Shown here one piece after another: positions 2,640 to 60,224 of a DNA stretch of 64,000 bases. Position numbers and translations under genes: made by a program. Below the pieces are notes generated by a model, which was not told the origin of the DNA, made no database searches, and was given only the letters and a program-made list of their open reading frames with translations. The number at the start of each line of letters is the position of its first letter. The first letter of the stretch is position 1. The DNA lies in IMG/VR virus record IMGVR_UViG_3300002026_000009, positions 1 through 64,000 of that record; one strand, written 5' to 3'. The DNA comes from a virus.

Positions 2640-2852
2640 ATGCTGATTATTGCACAATATGTTAATCCATATGGTGAAGAATTTTTTGCATCAATTGTCT
2701 GCGATGAAATGCGCGGTGAGATAATTGAACAACTAACTACCGAATTGGTAGATAAATGCGGCGATGAAATACGGCTCGAGGATATCTATTTCTACAATTC
2801 GGTGCGGCTTAGGGTCGAAATTAAAAAGGAATATGTAATCTCGGAATACTAA
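2640..2852 (+). CDS. hypothetical protein
   Basis: ORF track entry. Tightly packed after the previous stop. TAA stop. Confidence 0.55.
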   Translation: MLIIAQYVNPYGEEFFASIVCDEMRGEIIEQLTTELVDKCGDEIRLEDIYFYNSVRLRVEIKKEYVISEY

Positions 2853-2854
2853 TT

Positions 2855-2880
2855 AAAGCGGCAATTGCCGCTTTTTATTT
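2855..2880. terminator. bidirectional terminator AAAGCGGC-AATT-GCCGCTTT
   Basis: 8-bp palindromic hairpin followed by TTATTT. Confidence 0.6.
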
Positions 2881-2946
2881 ATCTGCCTGCTATAATATTT
2901 ATAGCACAGCATATACCGTGCTATAAATATTGTAGCGGGGGCGCCA

Positions 2947-2976
2947 ATTATACTCTATAATTGGCGCACGTGTCAA
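2947..2976 (-). promoter_or_regulatory. leftward promoter TTGACA-N18-TATAAT with no leftward ORF
   Basis: TGTCAA at 2971-2976 and ATTATA at 2947-2952. The module is paralogous to 1661-1690. Confidence 0.4.
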
Positions 2977-3228
2977 GCATTTTCGTGCAACTTTACATAT
3001 CTTTACACAATGTTGTTTTTTCGCAACACCATGTGCGCCGTGAATGCGAATCATTCTCAGGTAGGTTCGTATATGCGTGTATGCTTATATTCTGTGCTAT
3101 TGATAATATAGCAGCGCTATCATTTTTGTAGCAGCGCTATCAAAAGCATAGCAGAGGTATCACCTCTGCGCCAGTGGTAGTTCGAAGTGAAAATCCTTGC
3201 AAAAATTCCGGGAGGTACCTCGCGCCCA

Positions 3229-3258
3229 ATTATAAGTGGAAATCCTTGGTAATGTCAA
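3229..3258 (-). promoter_or_regulatory. leftward promoter TTGACA-N18-TATAAT with no leftward ORF
   Basis: TGTCAA at 3253-3258 and ATTATA at 3229-3234. Confidence 0.4.
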
Positions 3259-3339
3259 GGGAAAAATTTTGCACTTGAAAAAATTTTCCAAATGAAATAT
3301 AATATTAAAAGTGGAAAAAATTATTTCGGAGGAAAAATA

Positions 3340-3996
3340 ATGAAGTATAAAAAATGGACGGATGAAGATTTTGCAGAATTAGCCAGGCTTAATGCACTAG
3401 GTAAAACTGCTAAAGAAATTGCAGACATATTGGGATGTAGTGATGAAACAATTAAAAGCTATAAAGTAAAACTGGGACTAAGTCGTAGATCAAATAGTAA
3501 CAGATTCGATTTTAATAAGTATAAGAATACCTTGGATGAATTAAGTATTACGGCGGTTGACTGTACATAGGTAAAAGGTAATAGCTTATTCAGCTGCATG
3601 AAGTGTGGGCTTGAGTGGAAAGCTAGATTATTTGATGTATGTTCTAGAAAACAGGAGTGTCCAGAATGTAAACCCAAGCACACGTCTAAAGCCGCTAATA
3701 CCTGGTTAGACTCTATTGGGATTACGCGCAGAGAAGTTAAAATACCTGGTACACAATACAAGGTTGACGGCTTAGGGTCAGATGGGGTTACAGTATACGA
3801 ATTTCTAGGAGACTACTGGCATGGTAATTTAGAGGTATTTGACTCAGAAGATGTAAATGCTGTAACCGGCGATACATATGGTACGTTATTTGATAGCACT
3901 GTTGAAAGGTTATTAGATATTAAATCTAGAGGGTACAAGGTAATTTACATATGGGAAAATGATTACCTTAAAGGTAATAAGCCAGAAGAGATGTGA
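3340..3996 (+). CDS. HTH + zinc-ribbon + PD-(D/E)XK-type putative homing endonuclease, one in-frame TAG (3568)
   Basis: ORFs 3292..3570 and 3598..3996 are in the same frame and are separated only by a TAG. GGAGG RBS before ATG 3340. Motifs CMKCG...CPEC and YEFLGDYWHGN. TGA stop. Confidence 0.6.
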
Positions 3997-4006
3997 AATT
4001 ATTGTC

Positions 4007-4181: not shown

Positions 4182-4481
4182 ATGACTAAAGCAGTAAATT
4201 ACACTCCTGAGCAAGAGACCCAGATCGTTGACCAGTATCAGGCTGGTATGTCCACCGACGAAATCGCTACCATGTTGGGCAAGAGCGTTCGTTCTGTGGT
4301 TGCAAAGTTGTCCCGCCTGGGTGTGTACAAAACCAAGGCAAAAACTGCTGGTGAGACCAAGACTACCAAGGCTGATCTGGTAGCTCTGATTGAGGGTCGT
4401 TATGCTGTTGAGCCTGGTACCTTCGCTGAGCTGGAAAAGCTGACTAAGGCTACCCTCACCTTGCTGGCCCGTGAAGATTGA
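4182..4481 (+). CDS. GcrA-like HTH family protein (paralogue 2)
   Basis: VNYTPEQ...STDEIATMLGKSVRSVVAKLSRLGVY. AAAGGAAA RBS, TGA stop. Confidence 0.7.
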   Translation: MTKAVNYTPEQETQIVDQYQAGMSTDEIATMLGKSVRSVVAKLSRLGVYKTKAKTAGETKTTKADLVALIEGRYAVEPGTFAELEKLTKATLTLLARED

Positions 4482-4486: not shown

Positions 4487-4537
4487 TTTAGGGTCAGAAA
4501 ATTTGATATTGACCCTAAATCGCCAAAAGTGTATAAT
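4487..4537 (+). promoter_or_regulatory. palindromic operator overlapping promoter TTGACC-N17-TATAAT
   Basis: Inverted repeat TTTAGGGTCA-N13-TGACCCTAAA at 4487-4519. Its right arm supplies the -35 box. A homologous module lies at 35982-36032. Confidence 0.55.
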
Positions 4538-4551
4538 ATATACTTAGACAC

Positions 4552-5531
4552 TCGCAATAAGGACAGGCAATACCGCATACCGATAAATACTGTCTTGCGT
4601 GAGTGTTCTATTTAATGTTATAATAATATATCTTAGACAGTTCTAGCCTCCGCCACGGACGCGACGAACATACTAAGTAGAGTGTTTCAGGTGTCTGCCA
4701 ACACTGTGACCCTAAGTTGCAGAGGCCTACACAGCGTGTACTGGTTAGAATGATATTCTTGCATAGCAGCAACCATGGCCAGTGGTGCAGGCTACACGAG
4801 TATCAGCCTATGGGACGTTGTTCGTGGACCACTACAACCGGATCGGGAACATTCTACTTAGTATTTGGGTTGCTATCTGATGATGGTCACACCCTGAGCG
4901 TAGCTCTAAAGTTGACCGAAACCCTAGGCTGTGTGGGCCTGCTCCGGCTTAGGGTCATAGTGAAAACTGTAGGTAACTAGGAACACCTATATCCCCTAGT
5001 CGTGTTTGGTGCTCTCACGTACCCAAAGTAGCCCGTTCGTATTCGTTAAGTACACCCCGCTAGAGTGATAGACTTACCATATCCCTGCTATAGGCAATAG
5101 ACTTGGAGCGCAATCTCCTAAGGTAAAACTACTGGCGGAAACGATAAACAGTTCCTTAATTAGCTAAAGGTATAAAACGATAGCTAGCCAATACAACACC
5201 ACCCGAGTGTCTTCGGTATCCCATCATCTAAGCTAAGAGCGTGGTTTTCACTACGTAATCTAGGTATCGAATCCTAGTGGGCGCTGGTTAGTCAATTTTG
5301 TTGCAAAATTGACTAGTCTAGTGAATACTTTATCAGCCAGCCAGGCGATTGGCTCAAGTCTAGCCACCTTGAGATTAGTCCGGTTTAGGGTCAGGGAAAC
5401 CAGTAAGTCAATCGCGGCCTGATTGCGGTAAGTCGTTTCCTAAAGTTTAATGGCAAGATCGCAACTTGTTGTTAGACATAAAACCATCGCCAGTTTTAGA
5501 GCCTCGGTACAGTAGTGCCGGGGCTTTTTTG
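4552..5531 (+). ncRNA. candidate long non-coding transcript (~0.9 kb)
   Basis: Two tandem promoters (-10 boxes at 4532 and about 4618) and a strong terminator at 5500-5531 bracket a region with TAA/TGA stops in all frames. Many local hairpins, e.g. 5291-5313, and a T-arm-like CTAGG-TATCGAATC-CTAG at 5259-5277. Confidence 0.35.
5500..5531 (+). terminator. intrinsic terminator
   Basis: 8-bp stem AGCCTCGG/CCGGGGCT followed by T6. Confidence 0.7.
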
Positions 5532-5561
5532 TTGCCCTAAGAATCCTCGAGAAATTTATGC

Positions 5562-5589
5562 TTGTCAAAATTTTTCATTATGATATAAT
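5562..5589 (+). promoter_or_regulatory. promoter TTGTCA-N16-TATAAT
   Basis: Hexamers read directly. Flanked by TTCTC(G/A)AGAA palindromes. Confidence 0.55.
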
Positions 5590-5639
5590 AAAGTATTCTC
5601 AAGAAATTGTGAGAATTCATTTAACCAAGGAAAATTTAT

Positions 5640-5978
5640 ATGCAGTATTCTCAAGAAACACAAGAAGAAGTTATCGAAGCACTAAAAACTGGAAGTACCC
5701 CTAAAGAAATCCACGAATTTACAGGTATTTCTTTAGCAACTATCTATCGTTGGCGGGATGAGAATTCTCGAGAATCTACTCCAGTTCTCGAGAATTCTCA
5801 GGAACGATTGGAAAAAGTTGTAGAGTTTCTCAAGAAATTCTTAACCCCTCAGCTAGAACAAGATATTAAGCTAGCGGATAAACAACTTAGTGAAGCTACC
5901 GGAGGTTTATCTGAGAAGATATGTCTAAAATGCTTGGAGAGATTTCAGCAGCTTAGGACCGAGTTAGAGTCCTTGTAA
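5640..5978 (+). CDS. small HTH DNA-binding protein
   Basis: STPKEIHEFTGISLATIYRWRDE looks like an HTH. AAGGAAA RBS, TAA stop. Confidence 0.65.
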   Translation: MQYSQETQEEVIEALKTGSTPKEIHEFTGISLATIYRWRDENSRESTPVLENSQERLEKVVEFLKKFLTPQLEQDIKLADKQLSEATGGLSEKICLKCLERFQQLRTELESL

Positions 5979-5982
5979 AATT

Positions 5983-6006
5983 AGCCCACCTTGAGTGGGC
6001 TTTTTC
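5983..6006 (+). terminator. intrinsic terminator GCCCAC-CTTGA-GTGGGC + T5
   Basis: Read directly. Confidence 0.65.
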
Positions 6007-6012
6007 GTGCCT

Positions 6013-6041
6013 ATTATAAAGTGGAAAACCTCCGCTGTCAA
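6013..6041 (-). promoter_or_regulatory. leftward promoter-like TTGACA-N17-TATAAT
   Basis: TGTCAA at 6036-6041 and ATTATA at 6013-6018. The predicted start runs straight into the hairpin at 5983-6006, so function is doubtful. Confidence 0.3.
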
Positions 6042-6294
6042 GTGTATTTTCTAGGCTCTCTGACCCTAAGCCGTAGCAAACTGCGAAGGCTCAAATTGAG
6101 CTTGTACCGCGATAATTTGAGTTAATTTAGTCAATTGTAGTCCAATTTTGGTTAGTCTCATTTAATTTGTGCTATTTGTGGATTTTGTTAGATTTATTCA
6201 GTTTAGGGTCAGGTTTGGGAGGCTGTCTGCGCCCAAAAGTGCTGCAACGGGGTTTTGCAACCACAATTTTTAGGTGGCCACCGTAATCAATTCT

Positions 6295-6424
6295 GACCCT
6301 AAATTGAAGCGATTGGAACAGGTAGGGCAGGTTAGTGCCGACCCTAAATTGAAGCGATTGGAACAGGTAGGGCAGGTTAGTGCCGACCCTAAATTGAAGC
6401 GATTGGAACAGGTAGGGCAGGTTA
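6295..6424 (+). repeat. 45-bp tandem direct repeat, 2.9 copies
   Basis: Identical units start at 6295, 6340 and 6385. Each begins with GACCCTAAATTGAAGCG. The array sits where converging transcription units meet. Confidence 0.95.
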
Positions 6425-6430
6425 CTTTTT

Positions 6431-6730
6431 TCATGTTGTTAGATGCTTGATTAATAGCTGTAGCACGCTTTTATTGCACTTTTCTAGGCTATCAAACACC
6501 AGTGGATCTTCTCCGCATAGTGTAGCAATCTCCTCGACTAAGGTGGCCTTTCGTATAGAAGGAGTACCCATTTTAGTCACGTATGGTTGCTTTCGGTATA
6601 GTCCCATACTAGACAGCTTGGCAATTAGTGAGCGTTCGCTGATTTCTAGTGCCACAGCGATTTCCTGCGGTGTTTGGGTCTCTAGTCGCAACTTAATGTC
6701 GGCTAGGAGTTCTGGAGTATATTTTACCAT
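6431..6730 (-). CDS. GcrA-like HTH family protein (paralogue 3)
   Basis: VKYTPELL...PQEIAVALEISERSLIAKLSSMGLY. ATG 6730 shares TAATG with the upstream stop codon. The ORF track start is 6742. TGA stop. Confidence 0.65.
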   Translation of the reverse strand: MVKYTPELLADIKLRLETQTPQEIAVALEISERSLIAKLSSMGLYRKQPYVTKMGTPSIRKATLVEEIATLCGEDPLVFDSLEKCNKSVLQLLIKHLTT

Positions 6731-7524
6731 TACAGCTCCCAAGGCATACGATTAGCTTTTGGTGCTACAGTCTCCGTAACAGATTTAGATACAACTTCTG
6801 TTTCTACTAGCGGAGGTGGCATAGAATCCCACGATTTAGGGTCAAGGATCATGTACTGATGTCGATTATCTGGATGTGCTGCCCAGGTTTGGCAAAGTAC
6901 CATACGTTGAATCTGCTGCAATTGAGCAGGACCCTTACCACAGCCACCATAAGTCCAGGACAGTCCATTAAGGCCATAAGTGCTAATGTAACTTTTTACA
7001 GTTCCCATTTTATCACCGCTCTTAACTGTAACACCTAGAGTACGCCACTCAATAATATCTTCTAGAGCATACTCTGGGATTTCTTCCGTCATTAGTGTGG
7101 CAAGGTCTTTACCAACCAAGTACTCTAGACCGTCTGACCCCCAGTCGCTGTATTTAATGCCATTGAACTGTTTGTGTGGCATCATTAGCAGCGGCACTAG
7201 ACGGCAATATGGCAGACCCTCAGTTGAGGTCTGCTTGAGCAAATAACGATCGCTAACACTAAACCAGTAGTAGATGCCTTTGTCTAGAGGATCTTTCCAA
7301 TTAGCTTTAATATATTCTCGTGGCTGAATTAAACCATCTTTGCCTCTAGAGATGGACCACTTAGCTACCCTTGCGGAGGCTTGTGCATATGCCCACGGCT
7401 TGTGCTTGATTCCATACTTTTCAGCCCATTCAGCGACCTCTTTCTTCCAATCCTCTTTACCAGTACAGTTCTCAAATAATTCTTGCAAACCAAGATTCTC
7501 AATAGTATTTTTAGCTTTAAACAT
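6730..7524 (-). CDS. hypothetical protein (264 aa)
   Basis: Long ORF with a TAA stop. No family recognised. Confidence 0.7.
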   Translation of the reverse strand: MFKAKNTIENLGLQELFENCTGKEDWKKEVAEWAEKYGIKHKPWAYAQASARVAKWSISRGKDGLIQPREYIKANWKDPLDKGIYYWFSVSDRYLLKQTSTEGLPYCRLVPLLMMPHKQFNGIKYSDWGSDGLEYLVGKDLATLMTEEIPEYALEDIIEWRTLGVTVKSGDKMGTVKSYISTYGLNGLSWTYGGCGKGPAQLQQIQRMVLCQTWAAHPDNRHQYMILDPKSWDSMPPPLVETEVVSKSVTETVAPKANRMPWEL

Positions 7525-17020: not shown

Positions 17021-17030
17021 AATTTCTCTC

Positions 17031-25621: not shown

Positions 25622-26932
25622 ATGTCTTCGATCAATCGCGTATCCCGTGTAGTTAATAAAACTTTCGAGGGTGCTGCTGCAAAACTAATTACTCCTGAAG
25701 CTAAGCTGAATCGTGTGGTTATGGCTTCCATGCTGTGGGAAGGACAATTTTACATCGACGGCCAAAAGTCGGCTGATGTAATTAAAGACCTTGTTGCTAA
25801 AGTCGACCCTAAGGTGGTAGAGTCTATTGCAATCAAGGCACGCGAAGCCATGAAACTTCGCCATGTGCCACTGTTCATTACCCGTGAACTGGCACGTATC
25901 GGCAAACTCTCACACGAGGTGCTAACTCGTGTTATCCAGCGTCCTGACGAATTGGGTGAGTTTGTATCAATGTATTGGATGGATAAGAAACAACCGCTGT
26001 CCAATCAAGTTAAACGTGGTCTAGCTAACGCTTTCCACAAGTTTAACGAATACCAGTTTGCTAAGTGGAATAAGTCTAGCGCAGCTGTGAAGCTCCGTGA
26101 TGTACTATTCCTAACCCACGCTAAACCTCGTACAGAGGGTGAGGCCGATCTCTTCAAGCGTATCGCTGATGAGAAACTGGAAACTCCAGATACTTGGGAA
26201 ACCGAGCTGTCTGGTGGTGCGGATAAAGGTGCTACCTTTACTCGCCTTATGAAGGAAAATAAGTTGGGTGCACTGGCATTCCTTCGTAACCTGCGGAATA
26301 TGGTACAGGCTGGAGTTGACGAAAGCCTTATCCGGGAATACGCTCGTGGTGTGAATACTGACCGTGTTCTTCCATTCCGCTTCCTTGCAGCAGCCCGCAT
26401 CGTTCCTCAATTCGAGGACATGCTGGAAAGCATGATGCTTCGTAGCCTTGAAAGCCACGAAAAGCTGCCAGGAAAAACCGTTCTGCTAATCGACGTTAGT
26501 GGCTCGATGTTCGGTACGAAAGTATCTGAAAAGAGCGATCTTGATCGTTTTGACGCAGCAGCTGCACTTGCTATTCTAGCTCGTGAAATCTGTGAAGAAG
26601 TAGAAATCTACTCCTTCTCGTACAACGCAGTTCGCGTTCCAGCCCGTCGTGGCATGGCACTGGTAGAGGCTATTCGCAACAGCCAAAACCACGGTGGTAC
26701 AGCAACAGGTAAAGCTGTTCGTAGCATTAACGCTAATGTTGAGTATACTCGCTGTATCATCTTCACCGATGAACAGTCGCATGACGTAGTACCTAACCCA
26801 ACAGGTATTGGTTATATCATCAACGTAGCTGCCTACGAAAACGGTATCGGTAACTCTAACTGGACTACCATTAGTGGTATGTCTGAAGCCGTTATCGACT
26901 ATATCCAGTTGTCTGAAAAGACAGTGGATTAA
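25622..26932 (+). CDS. rsr: Ro60-related protein (Rsr): TROVE + vWA domains
   Basis: 436 aa. The N-terminal part is TROVE-like. The vWA MIDAS motif LLIDVSGSM is present. AAAGGAAA RBS, TAA stop. Confidence 0.75.
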   Translation: MSSINRVSRVVNKTFEGAAAKLITPEAKLNRVVMASMLWEGQFYIDGQKSADVIKDLVAKVDPKVVESIAIKAREAMKLRHVPLFITRELARIGKLSHEVLTRVIQRPDELGEFVSMYWMDKKQPLSNQVKRGLANAFHKFNEYQFAKWNKSSAAVKLRDVLFLTHAKPRTEGEADLFKRIADEKLETPDTWETELSGGADKGATFTRLMKENKLGALAFLRNLRNMVQAGVDESLIREYARGVNTDRVLPFRFLAAARIVPQFEDMLESMMLRSLESHEKLPGKTVLLIDVSGSMFGTKVSEKSDLDRFDAAAALAILAREICEEVEIYSFSYNAVRVPARRGMALVEAIRNSQNHGGTATGKAVRSINANVEYTRCIIFTDEQSHDVVPNPTGIGYIINVAAYENGIGNSNWTTISGMSEAVIDYIQLSEKTVD

Positions 26933-27505: not shown

Positions 27506-27733
27506 ATGCACGACCCTAAATCGCTAGAAGCGTTCTTCTTAGAGTATATGCCTAGGACTAAAGAAGTTCTAGAGTCACTATGGGCTACAGATCGACGTGA
27601 GTTGTCCTAGGTTCTTCAAGAGTTTATGCGCGCAAGCGGAGAAAATTCTTGGATGTACCCGTATTTTTCCGATCTAGATTATTACACACGAACAGCACAA
27701 CATAAGTACACCAATCCCTGGGAAGTACTGTGA
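27506..27733 (+). CDS. hypothetical protein, 1 in-frame TAG (27608)
   Basis: MHDPKSLEAFF...RELS-TAG-VLQEFMRASG... The TGA stop overlaps the GTG start of the next gene. Confidence 0.45.
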
Positions 27734-30169: not shown

Positions 30170-30517
30170 ATGGAAAATATGCGTAAAATTGTTGTCCACG
30201 TTACTGCTGGTACTGGTATGGATAACTGGGAGTTCTACGAAGTAGACCCTAAGGTAGAGCGAGGCGTAATCGACAACTTTGCTGAAGAGGCCGCCATCGA
30301 ATGGGCAGATTCATATGGCATAGGCGACCCCGGCAATTACCCAGACGAGCAAGACTTCGAAGACGATGAAGATGGGTACTCTGATGCCATTGATGAATGG
30401 GAAGCAGCCAGCCACGACTGGGATCAAGTAGAAGGCTCATTCGAAGATTACGTTCCAGAAAAACACGATGGATACTCAATGACGGGTACTCCAGAGTTTC
30501 AACGCTTCTCTAGCTGA
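30170..30517 (+). CDS. hypothetical very acidic protein
   Basis: GGAG RBS before ATG 30170. The 3' end overlaps tRNA-Phe. Confidence 0.55.
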   Translation: MENMRKIVVHVTAGTGMDNWEFYEVDPKVERGVIDNFAEEAAIEWADSYGIGDPGNYPDEQDFEDDEDGYSDAIDEWEAASHDWDQVEGSFEDYVPEKHDGYSMTGTPEFQRFSS

Positions 30518-34061: not shown

Positions 34062-34090
34062 TTGCACTAGAGACCCTAAAGTTGTATAAT
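34062..34090 (+). promoter_or_regulatory. promoter TTGCAC-N17-TATAAT
   Basis: The spacer contains GACCCTAAA. Confidence 0.55.
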
Positions 34091-34412: not shown

Positions 34413-34772
34413 ATGGCATGGACCGACGAACAAAAAGCACAAGCTAAACAAATGTACTTGGATGGCAATCCCACTCCAGAAAATTCAACCGAGCTGGTCA
34501 AGCAAATTGCTGAAGACCTCGACCAGTCTGCTAACGGTGTACGTATGCTACTGACCCAAGCAGGCATTTACGTCAAGAAAGACGACAAGGCTAAGCCTAC
34601 TACAGGCACGGCTAAAAAAGAAGGTGATGCTCCAAAGCGCGTTAGCAAAGAATCTCAAATCGCTGAGCTGAAAGCTGCAATCGAAGCCCGTGGTGCTGAA
34701 GTTGATGCTGACATTCTCGATAAACTTACAGGTAAAGCTGCCCAATACTTTGTAAAAGTTCTGGCTGCTTAA
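34413..34772 (+). CDS. GcrA-like HTH family protein (paralogue 4)
   Basis: MAWTDEQKAQAKQMYLDG...IAEDLDQSANGVRMLLTQAGIY. Confidence 0.65.
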   Translation: MAWTDEQKAQAKQMYLDGNPTPENSTELVKQIAEDLDQSANGVRMLLTQAGIYVKKDDKAKPTTGTAKKEGDAPKRVSKESQIAELKAAIEARGAEVDADILDKLTGKAAQYFVKVLAA

Positions 34773-35981: not shown

Positions 35982-36032
35982 CTTAGGGATCAGAAATTTA
36001 CATTTGACCCTAAGTTGTATTTATTGTATAAT
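35982..36032 (+). promoter_or_regulatory. palindromic operator overlapping promoter TTGACC-N17-TATAAT
   Basis: CTTAGGGATCAGAAATTTACATTTGACCCTAAG, homologous to the module at 4487-4537. Confidence 0.55.
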
Positions 36033-37598: not shown

Positions 37599-38354
37599 AT
37601 GAAAATTGACATTCCTACACATTGCCCATGTTGCAGTGAGCCACTCGAATTTACTAACGATCAGTTATTTTGTGTTAACTCTAGTTGCCCAGCACAGCTT
37701 TACAAGCGGGTTGAGCATTTTACAAAAACTCTTGGCATTAAAGGATTTGGCTCTAAAACTATCGAAAAACTAGCCCTAGATTCAATCCCCGAGATTTATT
37801 ATTTAGAATTTGAAGATGTAGCCGCTGCCCTGGGCAGTGAGCGTATGGCAGAAAAATTATTACTCGAAATTGAGGCTAGCCGAAATGCCTCACTAGACAA
37901 GGTACTGGCTGCATTTTCAATCCCTCTTATCGGACAAACGCTGTCAACACGGCTTTGTCAAGTAGTCAATAACATTGACGAAATTACAGCCGAAGCTTGC
38001 AATTCCGCAGGTTTAGGTGCTAAAGCTACAGCCAACTTGATCGGTTGGTTGAATACAGAATTTCTAGAGGTCAGAGAGTTTTTACCCTTTGACTTTAAGA
38101 CTTCTGGAACTGCCAGCAACACAGATAACGGTAAAAGTATCTGTATTACTGGTAAACTCGTTACCTTTAAAACCAAAGCAGAAGCCACAACAGCCCTAAC
38201 AACGGCTGGATACAAAGTAGTAGAGTCAGTAACAAAACAAACAGACATGCTAGTGGACGAAGGCGATAAAGGTAGCGCAAAACGTAAACGTGCCGAAGAA
38301 CTCGGTATTCCTATTATTACAAATCTCAAAGATTTTTTGAAAGAAAACAAATGA
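37599..38354 (+). CDS. NAD-dependent DNA ligase, C-terminal part (Zn finger, HhH, BRCT)
   Basis: CPCCSEPLEF...CVNSSCPAQ, HhH-like repeats, and a C-terminal BRCT-like ITGKL... Confidence 0.75.
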   Translation: MKIDIPTHCPCCSEPLEFTNDQLFCVNSSCPAQLYKRVEHFTKTLGIKGFGSKTIEKLALDSIPEIYYLEFEDVAAALGSERMAEKLLLEIEASRNASLDKVLAAFSIPLIGQTLSTRLCQVVNNIDEITAEACNSAGLGAKATANLIGWLNTEFLEVREFLPFDFKTSGTASNTDNGKSICITGKLVTFKTKAEATTALTTAGYKVVESVTKQTDMLVDEGDKGSAKRKRAEELGIPIITNLKDFLKENK

Positions 38355-39103
38355 CAGAAAAAACTATTGCTAAAAACTGGTCTGACGAAGCCGTTGCAAC
38401 CCTGAACTCTATTGTTGGCTCCGCTAGCCCTGTTAGCGTTGAGTTGGTTGAGCAAGCTGCCGAAGCTCTCGGTAAGTCTACCCGTTCGATTGCAAGCAAA
38501 CTGCGTCAGCTAGACCGCGATGTTGCTAGCATGGCTAAGGAAAAAGTTGCTGCCTTTACCAAAGAAGAAGGTGATGCACTGGCTGCTTTCGTTAATAGCA
38601 ACGCAGGTCAATATACATACAAAGAAATCGCTGAAAACTTCCGTGGTGGTAAGTTCTCTGCCAAGCAAGTTCAAGGTAAGCTGCTGGCACTGGAACTGAC
38701 TGGTTCAGTTAAGCCTACTGAAAAAGTTGAAGTTGCTGGTAAGTACAGCGAAGCCGAAGAAGCCCAGTTCGTTGCGCTGGCTAACAGTGGTGCCTTCATC
38801 GAAGACATTGCCTCTGCTCTTGGCAAAGAAGTTAGCTCTGTTCGCGGTAAAGCACTGAGCTTGATGCGTAAAGAGCAAATTGCTAAGATTCCTGCACAAC
38901 GCGAATCACATGCAGCTAATACTGTTGATCCAGTTGAAGCTCTTGGTACCAAGATTGCTACTATGACTGTAGCTGAGATTGCTGCAGCAGTTGACAAGAC
39001 TGAGCGCGGTATTAAGACAATGCTGACACGTCGTGGTATTGATTGTGCCGATTATAAAGGCGCAGCTAAAAAAGAAAAAGCAGAAGCTAAATCTGCTGCT
39101 TAA
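38351..39103 (+). CDS. protein with four GcrA-like HTH repeats
   Basis: Four internal repeats of the (W/Y)(S/T)xE...hxxIAxxLGK(S/E)xxS(I/V)xxKLxxL type. Confidence 0.65.
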   Translation: MTEKTIAKNWSDEAVATLNSIVGSASPVSVELVEQAAEALGKSTRSIASKLRQLDRDVASMAKEKVAAFTKEEGDALAAFVNSNAGQYTYKEIAENFRGGKFSAKQVQGKLLALELTGSVKPTEKVEVAGKYSEAEEAQFVALANSGAFIEDIASALGKEVSSVRGKALSLMRKEQIAKIPAQRESHAANTVDPVEALGTKIATMTVAEIAAAVDKTERGIKTMLTRRGIDCADYKGAAKKEKAEAKSAA

Positions 39104-49599: not shown

Positions 49600-51403
49600 A
49601 TATAAACGACTACGTTGGAGTAACTGCTTCTCCTACGGCGAAAATAATACGCTAGACTTCAATACTTCACAGATTCTACAACTTGTTGGTAGAAACGGGC
49701 ACGGTAAAAGCTCAATTGCCCTTATTTTAGAAGAAGTCTTATTTAATAAGAACTCAAAAGGCGTAAAAAAGCAGCATATTATCAATCGTAATTCTAAGGC
49801 TAAGAACTATAGCATTGGACTGGACTTTGCTAAAGACGGCGTAGAGTACACTATTGAAGTAACTCGTGGTAGTACCCAGACCGTTGTTCTGCTACGCAAT
49901 GGCGAAGATATTTCTAGCCATACAGCTACACAGACTTTCAAGGATATCGAGGCATTAATAGGGTATGACCATAAAACTTTCAGTCAGATTGTATACCAAA
50001 GCTCTACAGCTAGCCTTGAGTTCCTTACTGCTACAGACACTGCGCGTAAGAAGTTTCTTATTGACTTGCTTAATTTGGGTAGATACACAACTGCTCTTGA
50101 AGTCATCAAGGCTAAAGCACAGGTTGTATCAAAGGAGGTTACAGTTCAGGAGACTAAGCTAAAGCAGGCTCAGGGCTGGTTAGCCAAATATATTGGGCGC
50201 GACTTACAGAAAAAATCTTTAGTCGAAGTTCCGACTCTGCCTGATAGTCTATATGCCGAAAGTGCGCGACTTGAAAAATCCATTCAAAACGTGGGTTCGG
50301 AAACGGCAAAGATTGAAAAGAATCTGACATATAAAAAGCTATTAGACGGGGTAGAATTATATCCACTTCCCGAAGAAACTTTTTCTGCCGCTGATTTGAA
50401 AGCCTTAGAAACTGCAGAAATTGGCGTGGCTGCTGAAATTGCACAAATTGATAAACAGCTAAAGCAATTGGCTGCTACAAAAGACAGGTGCCCTACTTGT
50501 GGACAAAGTCTTGGGGTAGATACTAGTCATATTGCTAATGAGGTTGCTAAGCTAAATCAAGAACGTAAACTACTTGTAGCAACAAAACCGGAACTAGCCG
50601 ATAAAATAGCTAAACTTAAAGCGGCTAAAGCAGCCATTGATCGTTCTAATGAAGCACAAGAAAAATACGAAAAGTATCATCAGTTATACGACCCTAAGCT
50701 GCCGCAGGTAGTGCCAGATACAACTGCACTAACCGCTGAGCTTGCAGCTGTTAATGCTAGCATTAAAAAACATCAGCAAGAAATAAAAGCCGCACAGGAT
50801 GCTAATAAAGCAGCTGAAGTTCATAATGCTCAAGTAGATGGCATTCTAGAGCAGATTAGTGAGTTTGAACTTGAACGGGATGTTGCTACGCGCTCCCTTA
50901 CAGAGTTAGTAAAACTATCTAGTAGCTATGCAGTACTAACAAAAGCGTTTAGTACCACAGGACTAGTAGCATACAAAATCGAATGTCTTGTTAAAGACTT
51001 GGAGAAAATTACAAATGAATACTTGGCAGAAATGGCAGATGGACGATTCCAGCTCTCTTTCGAGATATCACAATCGGACAAGCTCAACGTGGTCATTACC
51101 GACAACGGAACAGATATCGACATTGCAGCTCTTAGCACAGGCGAGCGTGCCAGGGTTAACGTTGCTACTTTGCTGGCTATCCGCCGGTTAATGCAGAACC
51201 TTAGCAATACTCGTACTAATTTGCTTATCTTAGATGAAACAATAGAAAATCTCGATGCAGATGGTAAAGAACGTTTGATAGAGATTCTGTTGAATGAGCC
51301 AGATTTAAACACAGTTCTTATTTCTCATAGCTTTACACACCCACTTATTGATCGTGTTAGCATTGTTAAAGAACGTAATATGTCGAGGATTGATCGTGGT
51401 TGA
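49592..51403 (+). CDS. SbcC/Rad50-like ATPase
   Basis: Walker A GRNGHGKSS, a long coiled coil with a CPTCGQ zinc hook, signature LSTGE and Walker B LILDE. Confidence 0.8.
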   Translation: MIEYKRLRWSNCFSYGENNTLDFNTSQILQLVGRNGHGKSSIALILEEVLFNKNSKGVKKQHIINRNSKAKNYSIGLDFAKDGVEYTIEVTRGSTQTVVLLRNGEDISSHTATQTFKDIEALIGYDHKTFSQIVYQSSTASLEFLTATDTARKKFLIDLLNLGRYTTALEVIKAKAQVVSKEVTVQETKLKQAQGWLAKYIGRDLQKKSLVEVPTLPDSLYAESARLEKSIQNVGSETAKIEKNLTYKKLLDGVELYPLPEETFSAADLKALETAEIGVAAEIAQIDKQLKQLAATKDRCPTCGQSLGVDTSHIANEVAKLNQERKLLVATKPELADKIAKLKAAKAAIDRSNEAQEKYEKYHQLYDPKLPQVVPDTTALTAELAAVNASIKKHQQEIKAAQDANKAAEVHNAQVDGILEQISEFELERDVATRSLTELVKLSSSYAVLTKAFSTTGLVAYKIECLVKDLEKITNEYLAEMADGRFQLSFEISQSDKLNVVITDNGTDIDIAALSTGERARVNVATLLAIRRLMQNLSNTRTNLLILDETIENLDADGKERLIEILLNEPDLNTVLISHSFTHPLIDRVSIVKERNMSRIDRG

Positions 51404-51590: not shown

Positions 51591-52035
51591 CCCACGCGCC
51601 AAAGGCGCCAGGGCAGAAACTGTAATTAGAGATGCACTACGCAAACATACAGGGCTGCAGTGGGAACGAGTACCGGGAAGTGGTGCTCTTGACCCTAAGC
51701 ATAAGCTAAAAGGAGACATTTATGTTCCTAATGCAAATAACCTGTACTGCGTGGAGGCAAAACATTATGCTGAGGATCATCTTACAAGTGCTGTGCTAAC
51801 AAGTAAGAATCCTCAGCTAATGCAGTTCTGGGAACAAACAGTTCGTGAGAGTTAGCAGGTCGATAAAGAACCGTTATTAATCTTTAAGCATGATCGTAGT
51901 AAGCTGTTTGTAGGATTTAAAGATTTCCCAAGTGGTAACTATAATTATATGTTTATACATCACTCAACACATGAGTTCTATGTAGCCTTGTTAGATGATT
52001 GGCTACAACACGAAAGCATAAAATTTACAACTTAA
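51583..52035 (+). CDS. PD-(D/E)XK nuclease, putative Holliday-junction resolvase, 1 in-frame TAG (51853)
   Basis: GDIYV...VEAKH motif. ORF 51583..51855 continues in frame to the TAA at 52033. Confidence 0.6.
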
Positions 52036-53636: not shown

Positions 53637-54133
53637 TACAAAATGTATACAGCAATCAAAAAATGGAAGTAGATGACAAAGCACCAGTACAGCCAGGAGA
53701 ACCAGGATACATGCCAGCAATACAGTGCTTAAAGTTAGACCCTAAGGCGTTGTTGCCTACACGAGCTAACCCATTTGATGCCGGTGCCGACCTATACGCC
53801 GCTGAAAGTCTAGAGATTCTTCCAGGTGAGTCAGCTCTTGTAAGTACTGGCATTGCTATGAAGATTCCACGAGGCTACGCAGGCTTTGTAGATCCACGAA
53901 GCTCTATGCGTACAAAGGGCTTGACAACACATGGAACCGGTATTATTGATAGTGACTATCGTGGTGCACTAAAGGTATTTATTCATAACATGGGTGATGA
54001 TCGTTTTGTTATCCAACAAGGTATTACACGTATTGGTCAAATTACAATTGTTCCAGTTATGCTACCAGAATTTGTTGATACGTGGAATGATACCGATCGC
54101 GGTGTGGGTGGATTTGGAAGTACTGGCACATGA
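53627..54133 (+). CDS. dut: dUTPase
   Basis: Motifs AGADLYA, IDSDYRG and GGFGSTG. Confidence 0.85.
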   Translation: MRVIQNVYSNQKMEVDDKAPVQPGEPGYMPAIQCLKLDPKALLPTRANPFDAGADLYAAESLEILPGESALVSTGIAMKIPRGYAGFVDPRSSMRTKGLTTHGTGIIDSDYRGALKVFIHNMGDDRFVIQQGITRIGQITIVPVMLPEFVDTWNDTDRGVGGFGSTGT

Positions 54134-57727: not shown

Positions 57728-57768
57728 TAAAAAAGCCGCCAAAGCTATTTAGCTTTGGCGGCTTTTTA
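57728..57768. terminator. bidirectional terminator (13-bp stem)
   Basis: AGCCGCCAAAGCT-ATTT-AGCTTTGGCGGCT flanked by A and T runs, between convergent genes. Confidence 0.8.
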
Positions 57769-57769
57769 C

Positions 57770-58495
57770 TTAATAATGACGGTAGGCTTTTAATACCTTT
57801 TTACATACACCGCTACGAATACAATCATCATCAGTAAATTGTATTACTTCTACTTCGTCTAGATGGCGAAGTTTACCAATGGCATCTTCTAACCCTGTGG
57901 CATCAATTCTATCACGTTGACCAACGTCACCATTAATCATCATTTTAGTATTATTACCAATACGTGTTAGCAACAGCTTCATTTGCATTGGCGTTGCCTA
58001 TTGCATCTCATCTGCCAATATAATGCAGTCTTTAAAGGACCTGCCGCGCATGAATGCTAGAGGGACTGGTTCGATTGTACCAATCTTAAGACAGTATTCA
58101 ACAAAACTCTTACCCAATAGTTCGTTTAAAGTCTCCATATATGGAACTAGATAGGGTAACATCTTGCCTTCAACAAGATCTCCTGGTAAGAATCCTAGCT
58201 CTTCGCCGCAAGCTTCTACAGCTGGGCGAGTAAGGATTATCTTATTTACTCGTCTATAATATAGTTGCTCTGCTGCATAGTGTGTACTAACATACGTTTT
58301 ACCAACCCCCGCATCACCTAGTGCGAATACAATATCCTTAGTATTTAGTGCATCTATATAATCTTGTTGACGATATGTCTGCGCTTCTAGTTTAGGAAAT
58401 TTCTGAGCCGGTTTGCGGTCTGCAGGAGATTGATAGCCCATATCTTGTACCATCTGTGTAGTACGACGAGCTTTTTTACCAGAGGAAGTAGCCAT
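57770..58495 (-). CDS. phoH: PhoH-like ATPase, 1 in-frame TAG (57998-58000)
   Basis: ORFs 57998..58495 and 57770..57988 are in frame. Walker A GDAGVGKT. ...ILADEMQ-TAG-ATPMQMKLLLTRIGNN matches the family pattern DEAQN..QMK..LTR.G. Confidence 0.8.
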
Positions 58496-58503
58496 GTGAT
58501 TCC

Positions 58504-59057
58504 TTAGTTATTTAAAAGAGGTACGTATTTATGTATACGTACATTTAGTACATCATGTACATGATGATTGTTAATATCCCTAGCACTGCGATTAGCATAT
58601 AGTACTTTACGGGATTTAACGTTATATAGTTCAACGTTGTTAAACCAATATCTGTGATTGCAAGAGGCGCTAAGGTTGCACGCTACGCGTGAACGCCGCA
58701 CATCACTAACACCTCCATTATACGCGCTATCTGCAAAAGCTAGCGGCTCGTGCGTGTCTAGGAATAATGAGTAATTGGCTCGACTCATTAGTATCATAGT
58801 GCGTATTTGAAGATCTGGACGACTATAGATAGTACTCCAGTTTAGCTCACCTAACTCTTGTGGCCAACGACGACGCGCATCTTGCAGCGAATCAAATCGT
58901 AGGCTTCCATCTTCTCGCCAGGCTCTTGTAAGCTGCCCAAGGCCCGCACCCTCTTCTTTTGAAGTTTTAAGCCGCGATTGTGGGTTCCAACATTTGGAGT
59001 GCTTAAGGTGCTGGCAGCTTTCATGTTCGATTAGACTGGCGAGATATGCTTTTTTGG
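58504..59057 (-). CDS. lytic transglycosylase (SLT) domain, reached by -1 shift at A_AAA_AAG
   Basis: This frame reads KKAYLASLIEHES...GLGQLT...AYNGG, and it has no start codon of its own before Met 58797. Confidence 0.6.
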
Positions 59058-59450
59058 TACGTTAGGCCAGTATGTGGCTACCTCACTGGCAAGTACTGGT
59101 AGGTGTATTTTAGCTTGTGCCGGAATATACGTCTTAACATCTTGAGCCCGCGCCGATGGACCAAATAATCCGTAGATAGCCATAACGAATAGGCACATGC
59201 CTAAGAAGGTAATAGCCTACCCAATAGACTACTTCTTGGCCTCGTCGTACAGGTCGCCCATATCTACATACGGGAAAAGTAGTTTACGCAGCCAATGTCC
59301 AGCTAGAACTACCAGGATTGGTGTAGTTAGGTAGATTAAGAATTCCTACGTAATTGCCCCGGCTGTAGGGTCTGTTACATATTTAACAACCAATAGTAGT
59401 AGTGTAACTACTAATAGGGATAGGTTACGTTTATTGAAGTAAGGTTTCAT
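59031..59450 (-). CDS. 3-TM membrane protein (holin-like), 3 in-frame TAG, zero-frame product
   Basis: MKPYFNKRNLSLLVVTLLLLVV... with TAGs at 59346, 59229 and 59217. Ends PKKHISPV-TAA. ATGA-coupled to the upstream ORF. Confidence 0.5.
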
Positions 59451-59617
59451 CTTCTGATTTGTCCTATTAGCTGATCTAGTACATTGTCTATACGATCTAG
59501 ACGTTTCTACATACTTTCAATATGCTACTCTAGATCACGAGCACGCTACTCTAAGTGCGCAATATGTTCTCGTGCATTTGGTGTTAAACCTAGTACACGT
59601 AGTATCCAATTTTTCAT
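59447..59617 (-). CDS. small coiled-coil protein, 3 in-frame TAG
   Basis: ATGA overlaps at both ends. MKNWILRVLGLTPNAREHIAHLE-TAG-RARDLE-TAG-HIESM-TAG-KRLDRIDNVLDQLIGQIRR. Confidence 0.5.
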
Positions 59618-59871
59618 TGTACTACATCCTTTACTGCTTCAATAAGCTTTTTATGGCGTAACCTGCACTCACCATACTGTTCAATGTACTGCAAGTCTTC
59701 GTGCAGCAGATCTTGTAGCGCTATAGGACTTAGAGTTTTTAACTCTGGGCATTGTAATAATAATTCCGCAGGCACATTTACACGTTTTAATACCTCTACA
59801 CGTTCAATAACTGGAGGATTGTGGTTGCAAGCCGCTAAGATTGGTAAAAGAAGAAAGATTAAGTATTTCAT
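59614..59871 (-). CDS. o-spanin (outer-membrane lipoprotein, Rz1-like)
   Basis: Lipobox LLPILAAC. ATGA overlap with the i-spanin gene. Confidence 0.7.
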   Translation of the reverse strand: MKYLIFLLLPILAACNHNPPVIERVEVLKRVNVPAELLLQCPELKTLSPIALQDLLHEDLQYIEQYGECRLRHKKLIEAVKDVVQ

Positions 59872-60224
59872 TTGTTAGCTCTTTCTATAATCTTGCGGCG
59901 CGCTTCCAATAATTGCTCACTTGCTACACAGTCACCTTCACGAACCACTACTAGTGGCCCACTTTCTTTTAGTGCTGCGCGTATTTGTTGAGTATCTTGT
60001 ATTAATGCATTAATTTCTTTTGTTAGATCAACAGATCTTAGGCTTAGTGCTTTATTTACTACTGCAGTTTGGTTGTCTAAGGCTGTACGATATTCTGCAA
60101 CTTGTTTTGTATACTGCTCTGCTGCTGCTAATTCACCTGCTCTATATCCCGTAGTAGACCCTAAATAGTATACAAGGGCTAGTATTGCAGCTAGTGCTAC
60201 CACTATAATTATATTTTGTTTCAT
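59868..60224 (-). CDS. i-spanin (Rz-like)
   Basis: N-terminal TM segment IIIVVALAAILALVYYL followed by a coiled coil. Confidence 0.7.
   Translation of the reverse strand: MKQNIIIVVALAAILALVYYLGSTTGYRAGELAAAEQYTKQVAEYRTALDNQTAVVNKALSLRSVDLTKEINALIQDTQQIRAALKESGPLVVVREGDCVASEQLLEARRKIIERANK

Follow-up and report, generated by a model that had tools for sequence, protein, structure and literature searches.

The DNA uptake sequences that Neisseria and Pasteurellaceae use for transformation are bacterial words, found at about 1 per kb. Phages have operator and promoter-box systems of their own, such as the MotA boxes of T4, and GcrA-type regulators bind promoters together with sigma-70. In phage T5, the first-step-transfer DNA contains an untranslated repeat/injection-stop region with paired DnaA boxes (Davison, bioRxiv 10.1101/866236), and the A2 protein, a dsDNA-binding dimer whose target is not known, is essential for second-step transfer (bioRxiv 10.1101/866236; 10.64898/2026.04.02.716235). 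Additionally, the genomes of T5, tf and phiKMV-like phages bear single-strand interruption sites with a short asymmetric consensus, 5–20 per genome, on one strand only (PMC3517423).

The window analysed here, meaning the whole 64-kb stretch of an uncultured T5-like phage, contains 29 exact copies of GACCCTAA, 21 on the top strand and 8 on the bottom strand, and every coordinate and strand given in the first-pass annotation matched. No other 8-mer of the window is as over-represented, as an 8-mer ranking showed. A few copies had been put forward as the expectation; dinucleotide-preserving shuffles (n=100) yielded a mean of 1.41 copies and a maximum of 6 (Poisson P ~6e-28 for 29 copies against ~1.4 expected). 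The following base is indeed always A or G (29/29), the extended consensus is GACCCTAA-R-B-Y-G, with G at +11 in 24/29 copies, and the word spans 8–12 bases, GACCCTAA(RCYG), the full site being approximately YTGACCCTAARCYG. When exact copies are included, sites with at most one mismatch number 78 versus 41.5 ± 6.8 in shuffles; the one-mismatch variants themselves, previously described as many, are at chance level (49 versus ~40 expected), and the word is therefore sharp. Hundreds of IMG/VR contigs from an uncultured T5-like clade with 31–45% G+C keep it, with 197 copies versus 17 expected in a helicase set of relatives, 243 versus 23 in a reductase set and 286 versus 15 in an A2-like set, and relatives bearing the identical word share just 44–57% identity in the helicase. 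It is lacking in T5, apart from 1 copy in 100 kb, and in Vibrio phage PG07. The over-representation of GACCCTAA is thus genuine in this phage and its relatives.

The word was found in three settings, namely an untranslated array, the cores of a few sigma-70 early promoters, and genes, at about 1 per 3–4 kb. The array and the candidate reader genes are as follows:

2065..2394, plus strand: A2-like paralogue 1 (109 aa), assigned by paralogy; candidate reader of the word
4182..4481, plus strand: A2-like paralogue 2 (99 aa), with a GcrA-type helix-turn-helix
4488..6429, no strand: untranslated cluster core, 10 alternately oriented copies between two convergent A2-like genes
4488..4518, no strand: inverted pair TTTAGGGTCA-N13-TGACCCTAAA, left copy 4488−, right copy 4511+
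6062..6069, plus strand: copy upstream of the consensus leftward promoter 6041->6013, at 20 bp from its −35 hexamer
6295..6429, plus strand: three 45-bp tandem units, each beginning GACCCTAAATTG; repeat family D1
6431..6742, minus strand: A2-like paralogue 3 (103 aa), on the far side of the cluster from paralogue 2 and convergent with it
34413..34772, plus strand: T5 D3 homologue (35% identity, E 8e-16); alternative candidate reader
38351..39103, plus strand: T5 D5 homologue (42% identity, E 5e-55; PHROG 323, E 7.5e-41); alternative candidate reader

The cluster copies are 4488−, 4511+, 4708+, 4949−, 5385−, 6062+, 6203−, 6295+, 6340+ and 6385+. Copy 4488− lies 7 nt past the stop codon of the A2-like gene 4182–4481, copy 4511+ provides the −35 hexamer TTGACC of promoter 4509–4537 (17-bp spacer, TATAAT), and the tandem units lie directly 3′ of the A2-like gene 6431–6742(−). 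A like array of 6–10 copies with the consensus cTGACCCTAAACTG occurs in three relatives (L373, L370 and L305), and the same architecture was seen in L157, L249, L263 and L287 and in a density profile covering 79 loci; the cluster lies downstream of paralogue 1 in 79 IMG/VR relatives. Pairs analogous to 4488/4511 are present in L263, L249 and L305, and inverted pairs of the word in non-coding DNA are 15–22 bp apart. Like the T5 injection-stop region, this is 1–2 kb of untranslated DNA adjoining A2 gene(s), in which a short word of protein-binding type recurs densely, both as direct and as inverted repeats, and which is kept throughout a phage clade although the ORFs beside it vary. It differs from the T5 region in its word, which is GACCCTAA rather than the DnaA box, and in that this word is also dispersed genome-wide under selection; neither a DnaA-box cluster nor an A1 or dmp homologue was detectable in the window.

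Outside the array, three further copies lie in promoter cores or between genes:

27512..27519, plus strand: intergenic copy, 20 nt past tRNA-Ser (27406–27492)
34072..34079, plus strand: copy within a 17-bp promoter spacer, TTGCAC-tagaGACCCTAAagttg-TATAAT
36006..36013, plus strand: copy providing the −35 hexamer TTGACC of promoter 36004–36032

The promoter with copy 34072 precedes the operon for the D3, D2 and T5.115 homologues, and the same spacer placement recurs in relatives (L008, L014, L020, L026, L060, L263/L249, L287 and L285). Promoter 36004–36032 lies upstream of ORF 36047 and a split NAD ligase, and a degenerate inverted partner, cttagggatcag, is found upstream of its copy. This use of a short word at fixed places of sigma-70 promoters, spacer or −35, resembles MotA boxes and GcrA regulators, the latter also through the GcrA-type DNA-binding domain of a candidate reader. 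However, there are two registers 8 bp apart, few promoters bear the word (3–4 of ~46 promoter-like sites in the window), most copies are intragenic without promoter context, and there is no known methylation dependence. Promoter regulation cannot account for the ~15 intragenic copies, which are listed below:

2809..2816, minus strand: antisense frame 1 (..RV..) copy inside the small ORF 2640–2852(+)
3772..3779, minus strand: antisense Leu-Gly-Ser copy, ORF 3598–3996(+)
6836..6843, minus strand: sense Asp-Pro-Lys copy, ORF 6730–7524(−)
8251..8258, minus strand: sense Asp-Pro-Lys-Leu copy, ORF 8079–8300(−)
9590..9597, plus strand: antisense Leu-Gly-Ser copy, ORF 9457–9774(−), a gene also called in JGI contig L292
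13926..13933, plus strand: antisense (..Arg-Val) copy, cell-wall hydrolase gene 13761–14348(−) (PF07486, E 4.8e-24)
16033..16040, plus strand: sense Asp-Pro-Lys-Leu copy, ORF 15676–16083
25805..25812, plus strand: sense Asp-Pro-Lys copy, Ro60/TROVE-vWA gene 25622–26932
30245..30252, plus strand: sense Asp-Pro-Lys copy, ORF 30125–30517
39727..39734, plus strand: sense frame-2 (..Thr-Leu-Lys..) copy, 5′ end of the DnaB-like helicase reading frame
46310..46317, plus strand: sense Asp-Pro-Lys copy, variable loop of the D10-like helicase
46850..46857, plus strand: sense Asp-Pro-Lys-Leu copy, D10-like helicase
50690..50697, plus strand: sense Asp-Pro-Lys-Leu copy, D13 (SbcC-like) gene
51691..51698, plus strand: sense Asp-Pro-Lys copy, PDDEXK endonuclease gene
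53738..53745, plus strand: sense Asp-Pro-Lys copy, ORF 53627–54133
60157..60164, plus strand: antisense Leu-Gly-Ser copy, late-region ORF 59868–60224(−)

The word had been said to occur in all reading frames; in fact, coding copies in the window are overwhelmingly sense GAC-CCT-AAR, encoding Asp-Pro-Lys (DPK), with one sense frame-2 copy (39727) and five antisense copies, three right of 9 kb (9590, 13926 and 60157) and two in the left 4 kb (2809 and 3772), and the third sense frame, which contains TAA, is unused. Several relatives have antisense copies at a similar distance downstream of the reductase gene, comparable with 60157. The companion proposal of selection at the DNA level was, on the other hand, supported. 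DPK is the top over-represented tripeptide of the window (5.4x), and 12 of its 13 occurrences are spelled GACCCTAAR, versus 15% by codon usage; clade-wide, 240/315 DPK use GACCCT, compared with 18% for DPR. In the variable loop of the D10-like helicase, DPK occurs in 21/50 homologues and is spelled with the word in 21/21, and the tripeptide at 46850 occurs in only 4/50, 4/4 being spelled with it. In each of the four stop-free frames, antisense as well as sense, the word is enriched ~10–30-fold over codon usage, with odds ratios, clustered by orthologous position, of 9 for DP[KN], 11 for sense frame 2, 29 for antisense LGS and 18 for antisense RV, while the control tripeptides are rarely spelled with TTAGGG (LGT 0/142, LGA 4/131). 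Since enrichment is similar in both orientations, selection acts on double-stranded DNA whatever the orientation; it targets DNA, not protein, and is strong enough to put Asp-Pro-Lys into many proteins. New DPK tripeptides seem costlier than synonymous conversion of existing LGS, and the word may have a residual sense-strand preference. DNA uptake sequences likewise pair an exact core with weaker flanking sequence, occur in both orientations and form intergenic inverted pairs, and there too selection on DNA produces a strong bias to certain reading frames and tripeptides; what sets the present word apart is its occurrence in lytic-type phage genomes, with a dense array beside helix-turn-helix genes and sites in promoter cores.

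The strand polarity noticed earlier holds as a positional split, as the bottom-strand copies all lie left of 8.3 kb (8/8) and the copies right of 9 kb are all on the top strand (15/15), but not as a property of one strand. In the reductase set of relatives, the word tracks gene orientation (225 sense versus 17 antisense), and minus-strand late genes bear minus-strand copies. Most copies fall on the sense strand because just four of six frames are free of stops and, under phage codon usage, the one read as Asp-Pro-Lys is 20–80x closer to the word; the top-strand excess right of 15 kb arises because copies are mostly sense and most genes there are on the top strand. Thus, the apparent polarity is a by-product of reading frames and gene direction, and a functional one was not supported in view of the similar enrichment in both orientations, the alternating non-coding copies and the use of the sense strand by relatives.

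Orientation bears directly on two earlier suggestions. If a site-specific nickase acted on the word, in the manner of T5, BF23, Pseudomonas phage tf and phiKMV-like phages, virion DNA would have a single-strand interruption at or beside each copy. The phage is T5-like, T5-type genomes bear localized nicks (PMC10644984, PMC3517423), the word is as sharp and asymmetric as the 9-nt tf site, and the window copies right of 9 kb share one strand. Nevertheless, such nicking is quite unlikely, as copies in relatives occupy both strands following gene direction, nicking of the alternating cluster copies and inverted pairs 15–22 bp apart would give double-strand breaks, and copies lie in promoter cores. 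Moreover, the word differs from every published nick consensus, that of T5, R/GCGCRGG (PMC3517423), being unrelated, T5 virtually lacks the word, and nicks annotated in the T5 record are opposite the strand of the D-region genes, whose sense strand bears the word here. An orientation-dependent Chi-like signal attenuating a RecBCD/AddAB-type exonuclease that enters from the linear genome ends could draw on the over-representation of an 8-mer, on bottom copies at the left and top copies elsewhere, the layout expected for two-end protection, and on the extension GCTGG, which in 3 copies is similar to the first bases of E. coli Chi. It is most improbable given the equal enrichment in both orientations after codon-usage correction, the alternation within the cluster and the minus-strand copies in minus-strand late genes of relatives, which have the wrong orientation for right-end entry. 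The contigs of 31–45% G+C that keep the same word probably have different hosts, moreover, which favours a phage-encoded reader.

A role in mRNA or translation, either as an in-frame sense GACCCUAAR site for an RNase or RNA-binding protein or through a ribosomal event at CCC-UAA in the −1 frame, would agree with the sense excess in the reductase set, with 199 copies in the DPK frame, and in the helicase set (197 sense, 0 antisense). It is very unlikely, however, because antisense Leu-Gly-Ser is enriched as strongly as the sense frames, with controls at 0–3%, the window ORFs contain five antisense copies (the 13926 gene being domain-verified and the 9590 gene JGI-called), non-coding copies have both orientations, and some copies, in a −35 hexamer or spacer, lie upstream of the transcription start and are untranscribed from that promoter. 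Reading by a host factor, or by a DNA-modifying enzyme (methyltransferase or hypermodification), instead of an A2/D3/D5-type protein is an unlikely alternative to which an exact, sharp and asymmetric word, typical of enzymes, would be suited; T5-like phages escape restriction and methylation by means not known (PMC10644984), and the A2/D3/D5-type readers are candidates only. Against it, the word is identical across relatives that range from 31 to 45% G+C and have just 44–57% helicase identity; it is not obvious what a phage would gain from enriching a modification target, the part of the window proteins that was scanned contained no methyltransferase, and placement in promoter cores and in an array beside helix-turn-helix genes is the pattern that usually marks a cognate binding protein.

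Of the functions listed in the first-pass annotation, a protein-binding signal fits best. With a probability of about 0.5, GACCCTAA (~YTGACCCTAARCYG) is the recognition word of a phage-encoded, sequence-specific dsDNA-binding protein, the likeliest reader being one or more of the GcrA-type helix-turn-helix proteins in the T5 A2/D3/D5 family. The densest site cluster is flanked by three paralogues from this family, an association that is phylogenetically non-independent because the synteny lies within one clade. Paralogue 2 matches Pfam GcrA (PF07750, 27.0 bits versus a cut-off of 26.9), PHROG 323 'D5-like' and PHROG 1725, and the N-domain of its AF2 model (pLDDT 77) superposes on the GcrA DBD (5yiu) with TM 0.81 and rmsd 0.8 Å over 43 residues. 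Paralogue 3 matches PHROG 1725 and, by BLASTP, T5 A2 (E 0.003), and an identical gene in L292 has a weak PF26822 Phage_T5_A2 match. The D3 homologue is a DNA-binding protein of the A2-like helix-turn-helix family encoded downstream of the promoter bearing copy 34072, and the D5 homologue has three repeats of the A2/D3-type helix-turn-helix. Since T5 and Vibrio phage PG07 have A2, D3 and D5 without the word, reader specificity would need to be clade-specific.

Such a protein would use the word in three ways. The array of 6–10 alternately oriented sites between convergent A2-like genes would correspond to the repeat regions, also untranslated, in T5 first-step-transfer DNA; a few sigma-70 early promoters would have an operator in their core, either within the 17-bp spacer or in overlap with the −35 hexamer; and dispersed sites, ~1 per 3–4 kb, would be spread over the remaining genome. 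Within genes, selection for the word as DNA has fixed GAC-CCT-AAR as the codons used and has even given rise to Asp-Pro-Lys(-Leu/Pro) in variable loops. Enrichment irrespective of orientation, selection on the DNA, conservation in the clade, placement in promoter cores and synteny with A2-like genes are shown here, whereas binding by a protein, the identity of that protein and the effect of binding are inferred; the outcome may be early-promoter shut-off or nucleation of the protein on phage DNA.

The octamer GACCCTAA, which reads GACCCTAAR with the base that follows it and is called the word here, was found 29 times in the window, at exactly the positions and on the strands listed in the first-pass annotation (21 top-strand and 8 bottom-strand copies). 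The enrichment claimed there was borne out by dinucleotide-preserving shuffles of the window, which contained a mean of 1.4 and a maximum of 6 copies, and the word is the top 8-mer of the window both by frequency and by over-representation. As already noticed, the base directly after it is A or G in 29/29 copies, and the extended window consensus is H-GACCCTAA-R-B-Y-G, with G at +11 in 24 of 29 copies. Among 36 non-coding copies from the window and its relatives, the extension consists of T at -1, R at +8, C at +9, Y at +10 and G at +11, or roughly YTGACCCTAARCYG. The impression that one-mismatch variants are also numerous was not sustained, since about 49 occur against about 40 expected (78 against 41.5 +/- 6.8 when at most one mismatch is allowed); this lack of enrichment among the variants indicates that the word is sharp.

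The phage from which the window comes is uncultured and distantly T5-like; it encodes a split NAD ligase, homologues of T5 D2, D3, T5.115 and D5, a DnaB-like helicase, a primase, a DNA polymerase, a D10-like helicase, SbcCD-like D12/D13 and a flap endonuclease, together with 26 tRNA genes. Its closest cultured relatives share at most 37% amino-acid identity, no nucleotide match to 36 kb of the window was found among 50,697 phage records, and exact look-up of the proteins encoded at 690-1394 and 62149-63867 returned no record. A JGI contig, L292, is essentially identical to the window and begins 1.9 kb left of its start. IMG/VR contains hundreds of contigs from this clade that carry the word, their helicase identities being 44-95% and their G+C contents 31-45%: the surroundings of the helicase gene hold 197 copies in 814 kb (17 expected), those of the ribonucleotide reductase 243 in 1.19 Mb (23 expected) and those of the A2-like gene 286 in 846 kb (15 expected). 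T5 (100 kb) carries a single copy and Vibrio phage PG07 carries 9 against 4 expected, with neither cluster nor extended consensus, and both are regarded as lacking the system. ThyX, used as a marker, yielded only one useful relative (locus L157), which has the word cluster as well, and tblastn of an A2-like protein against cultured phages gave no match. A 454-aa late protein was rejected as a clade marker, since it led to unrelated phages that lack the word (30-68% G+C). Relatives 60-78% identical to this protein (gene at 60719-62083, minus strand; relatives in loci L077-L156) occur in phage contigs with a G+C content of 55-68% that have nothing else obvious in common with the window phage, and the gene seems to be a structural one that has been exchanged widely. 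A double-site pattern scan of genome contigs returned more than 120 hits, all of them tandem or low-complexity repeats in unrelated bacteria and none T5-like, and gave no pointer to the host. A tmRNA encoded at 16683-17046 (plus strand), not called by ARAGORN, scores 108 bits against the Betaproteobacteria tmRNA model (gathering score 84) and 123 bits against the permuted tmRNA model; its type may point to the lineage of the host.

Other genes of the window also deserve mention. A tRNA with anticodon CUA lies at 23199-23285 among the phage tRNAs (called tRNA-Pyl by ARAGORN), and at least two genes run in frame through TAG into sequence resembling the same protein, namely PhoH (57998-58495 and downstream; ILADEMQ, the TAG, then ATPMQMKLLLTRIG) and a PDDEXK endonuclease (51583-52030; RES, the TAG, then QVDKEPLLIFKH), which together suggest that this T5-like phage recodes amber codons or reads through them. 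Within the tRNA region, a gene for a Ro60/TROVE plus vWA protein (25622-26932, plus strand) could represent a Ro-type RNA-binding module with tRNA-like partners. The product of 14973-15461 (plus strand) matches the N-terminal domain of dATP/dGTP diphosphohydrolases (PF18909, E 4e-36), a domain type that occurs in phages altering their nucleotide pools. At 42027-46033 (plus strand), the DNA polymerase reading frame ends at 572 aa, compared with 855 aa in the T5 record, and is followed by a 301-aa ORF (43983-44888) rich in Cys-x-x-Cys pairs and then by more ORFs; the polymerase gene looks as though it were split by an inserted endonuclease-like gene.

The proposal that selection acts on the DNA and not on the protein was confirmed by the coding copies. 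When the word is co-oriented with a gene, it is mostly read as GAC-CCT-AAR, that is Asp-Pro-Lys, often followed by Leu, and coding copies avoid the sense frame containing TAA, so that the earlier statement that all reading frames are used had to be abandoned. The coding copies of the window are as follows.

Coding copies of the word in the window
Sense, Asp-Pro-Lys: 6836, 8251, 16033, 25805, 30245, 46310, 46850, 50690, 51691, 53738
Sense, frame 2: 39727 only
Antisense (five): 2809, 3772, 9590, 13926, 60157

In the window, 12 of the 13 Asp-Pro-Lys tripeptides are spelled with the word, compared with 15% expected from codon usage (binomial P ~1e-9), and no tripeptide of the window proteome is more over-represented than Asp-Pro-Lys (5.4x). 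Across 1,713 distinct clade proteins, the GACCCT spelling is used in 240/315 Asp-Pro-Lys and in 18% of Asp-Pro-Arg, and Asp-Pro-Lys is 5-8x commoner than Glu-Pro-Lys, Asn-Pro-Lys or Asp-Pro-Arg. The first helicase site of the window falls in a loop that is variable in an alignment of 50 homologues (DPK, TAR, NPK, TPK, EPK and others), and all 21 aligned sequences having DPK there use the word. The word is a clean viral example of DNA-level selection rewriting protein sequence.

With regard to strand polarity, it was verified that all copies right of 9 kb are on the top strand; however, the polarity is not tied to one DNA strand but follows gene direction. Twelve of these 15 copies lie in top-strand transcription units and three are antisense in minus-strand ORFs. 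Antisense copy 13926 is inside a domain-verified hydrolase gene and 9590 inside an ORF that JGI also called as a gene. The eight bottom-strand copies belong to the 2.8-8.3 kb region, which contains the untranslated core 4488-6429. In the helicase surroundings of relatives, where the genes all point one way, the word is found 197:0 on the sense strand, and downstream of the reductase, where the late genes are reversed, it moves to the other strand. The 225 sense versus 17 antisense copies of the reductase set (188+/55- by DNA strand), together with this switch, tie the polarity to gene direction. For each stop-free frame, an odds ratio was then calculated from the share of compatible peptides carrying the word and the share expected from codon usage, after orthologous positions had been collapsed.

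Word use at compatible peptides, by frame
Sense frame 0, Asp-Pro-Lys/Asn: 47/74 positions, odds ratio 9
Sense frame 2, x-Thr-Leu-[KRSN]: 9/242 positions, odds ratio 11
Antisense, Leu-Gly-Ser: 10/56 positions, odds ratio 29
Antisense, [FLIV]-Arg-Val: 2/80 positions, odds ratio 18

Control tripeptides with TTAGGG gave 0/142 for Leu-Gly-Thr and 4/131 for Leu-Gly-Ala. The enrichment is therefore of the same order in both orientations, and Asp-Pro-Lys predominates because 16% of these tripeptides would carry the word by chance already, compared with 0.2-0.8% in the other frames. A motif's strand polarity can thus be a pure reading-frame artefact.

The densest concentration of the word lies between genes of the A2-like family, arranged as follows.

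2065-2394, plus strand: third A2-like paralogue
4182-4481, plus strand: A2-like paralogue, convergent with 6431-6742
4488-6429: untranslated core with ten word copies in alternating orientation, two of them paired as inverted repeats at a promoter and three carried by 45-bp tandem units
6431-6742, minus strand: A2-like paralogue

Inverted word pairs are 15-22 bp apart. The relatives repeat this module, with an A2-like gene, 1.5-2 kb of untranslated DNA bearing 6-10 alternating cTGACCCTAAACTG sites and a convergent A2-like gene, so that the window and its relatives alike have an array adjoining candidate binding-protein genes. Searched against Rfam, the untranslated stretch at 4.4-6.5 kb gave no match, and its nucleotide sequence is not conserved in relatives. 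The A2-like paralogues match PHROG families described as 'D5-like' and 'DNA binding protein'. Among them, one reaches 27.0 bits against Pfam GcrA PF07750 (cut-off 26.9), and only weak matches were obtained to PF26822 Phage_T5_A2 and, by BLASTP, to T5 A2 itself (E 0.003). An AlphaFold model (pLDDT 77) predicts an N-terminal three-helix domain and a second helical domain, the former superposing on the DNA-binding domain of Caulobacter GcrA (5yiu) with TM 0.81 and rmsd 0.8 A over 43 residues (Foldseek E-value 0.48). A PDB sequence search with the A2-like and D5-like proteins gave nothing meaningful. Just past the 45-bp repeats, a 27-bp difference separates window 6295-6450 from L292 8180-8337, the contigs being otherwise identical, which indicates that the repeat region varies in length between populations. 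From a near-consensus promoter (4509-4537) to a strong terminator-like hairpin (5498-5527), about 1 kb (4540-5527, plus strand) lacks a credible ORF and contains long-range complementary segments (4661-4686/4848-4873; word copies 4708/4949); a non-coding RNA is possibly encoded here. The minus strand also has four sigma-70 promoters with a perfect 12/12 match to the consensus (1661-1690, 2947-2976, 3229-3258 and 6013-6041), amid plus-strand ORFs, two of them within a 49-bp repeat (1625-1673/2911-2959).

A good share of the non-coding copies sit in sigma-70-type promoter cores, always oriented with transcription, in two placements.

Spacer placement (5-7 bp before TATAAT, within the 17-bp spacer): window 34072, in front of the operon for D3- and D2-like proteins; relatives' loci L008, L014, L020, L026, L060, L263/L249, L287, L285
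-35 placement (overlapping the hexamer, TTGACCctaa-N13-TATAAT): window 4511 and 36006; relatives' loci L063, L231

Of about 46 promoter-like sites in the window, no more than 3-4 contain the word. A promoter-element model was rejected for the intragenic copies, which have no -10 at either fixed spacing. These observations indicate an operator-like role at a few early promoters and not a general promoter element.

Taken together, the sharp asymmetric word, the orientation-independent selection on duplex DNA, the arrays beside helix-turn-helix genes, the operator positions at promoters and the conservation across base compositions are best fitted by a recognition site for a phage-encoded DNA-binding protein. 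Obvious candidates for this protein are the A2-like paralogues or, in their place, the homologues of D3 and D5, which are related to them. The T5 record annotates D5 as a protein that binds DNA and is required for late transcription as well as for early shut-off. Nick-type and Chi-like functions, both suggested at the outset, need a polarity related to strand or ends, which is contradicted by the relatives, the cluster and the frame analysis. A Chi-like recombination or anti-exonuclease signal would account for an over-represented oligomer (29 copies against 1.4 expected) but is hardly credible, since in relatives the word follows the gene strand and not DNA ends or replication direction, sense and antisense frames are equally enriched and the cluster alternates in orientation. 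It is unlikely that the word is a T5-type nick site, which would have to lie on one strand, whereas 8 of 29 window copies and 55 of the reductase set (188+/55-) are on the other, and inverted pairs are only 15-22 bp apart. The tf nick consensus has the form TACT/RTGMC. By inspection, the extended word does not resemble the published nick consensuses, which are R/GCGCRGG for T5, unrelated to the word, CGACN5CCTA/CTCCGG for phiKMV, and TACTGTGAC and TACTATGAC for tf (PMC3517423). An RNA or translational signal is very improbable, given that antisense copies are equally enriched and some copies lie upstream of transcription starts. That the word is read by a host factor or a DNA-modifying enzyme is doubtful.

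The array occupies the place corresponding to the untranslated repeat regions with paired DnaA boxes in the first-step-transfer DNA of T5 (bioRxiv 10.1101/866236). Unlike the T5 iss, however, the 4.4-6.5 kb region contains no DnaA box (TTWTNCACA; 5 in the window against 8.6 expected). The iss is situated at the inner end of a long terminal repeat, close to A1 and dmp; homologues of these two genes were not detected in the window. In T5 (NC_005859; loci L075/L076), GTGCAAATCCGAC occurs 7-9x on one strand of the injection-stop region (9753-10490), the first copy lying 5 bp away from the major nick annotated at 9748/9749, and again at 12154 and twice inside D13 (78936, 78951). Separately, unrelated phage contigs of ~60% G+C carry two TTTAGGGTCA/TGACCCTAAA repeat arrays around a short central segment (L257 4797-5124; L260 3246-3509; L268 10559-10840; L283 7889-8152), between VRR-NUC-like and HNH genes and beside an SNF2 helicase. 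These are probably an iteron-like origin or operator using the same 10-mer, and no A2-like protein was detected near them.

A site recognized by a phage-encoded protein belongs to a known kind, the binding-site arrays and operators of phage regulators; what is unusual is genome-wide selection strong enough to shape the proteome. Neither this word nor any comparable genome-wide word of T5-like phages was found described in the literature searched: full-text searches with the word returned only miRNA and telomere papers, and those on over-represented motifs of T5-like phages nothing relevant. T5-type phages enter in two steps, destroy host DNA and spare their own on a basis that is not known, and T5 A2 is a dsDNA-binding dimer, essential in second-step transfer, whose target is not known (bioRxiv 10.1101/866236; 10.64898/2026.04.02.716235). 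The roughly 15 dispersed sites could be points at which the protein starts to assemble on phage DNA, in the service of shut-off, protection or entry of the DNA. More tentatively, with a probability of about 0.15, the word could be a genome-wide 'self' tag of the T5-like clade, read by A2-like proteins made from the first-entering DNA; binding to the array and dispersed sites would then either drive or rectify second-step entry as a ratchet, or label phage DNA and so spare it both the nuclease with which the phage destroys host DNA and restriction or methylation by the host. Lying between A2-like genes, in early-promoter cores and dispersed under selection, the word is a concrete, testable candidate for the target of such proteins, and the 'self' tag, if true, would provide the first sequence-level handle on the role of T5 A2.
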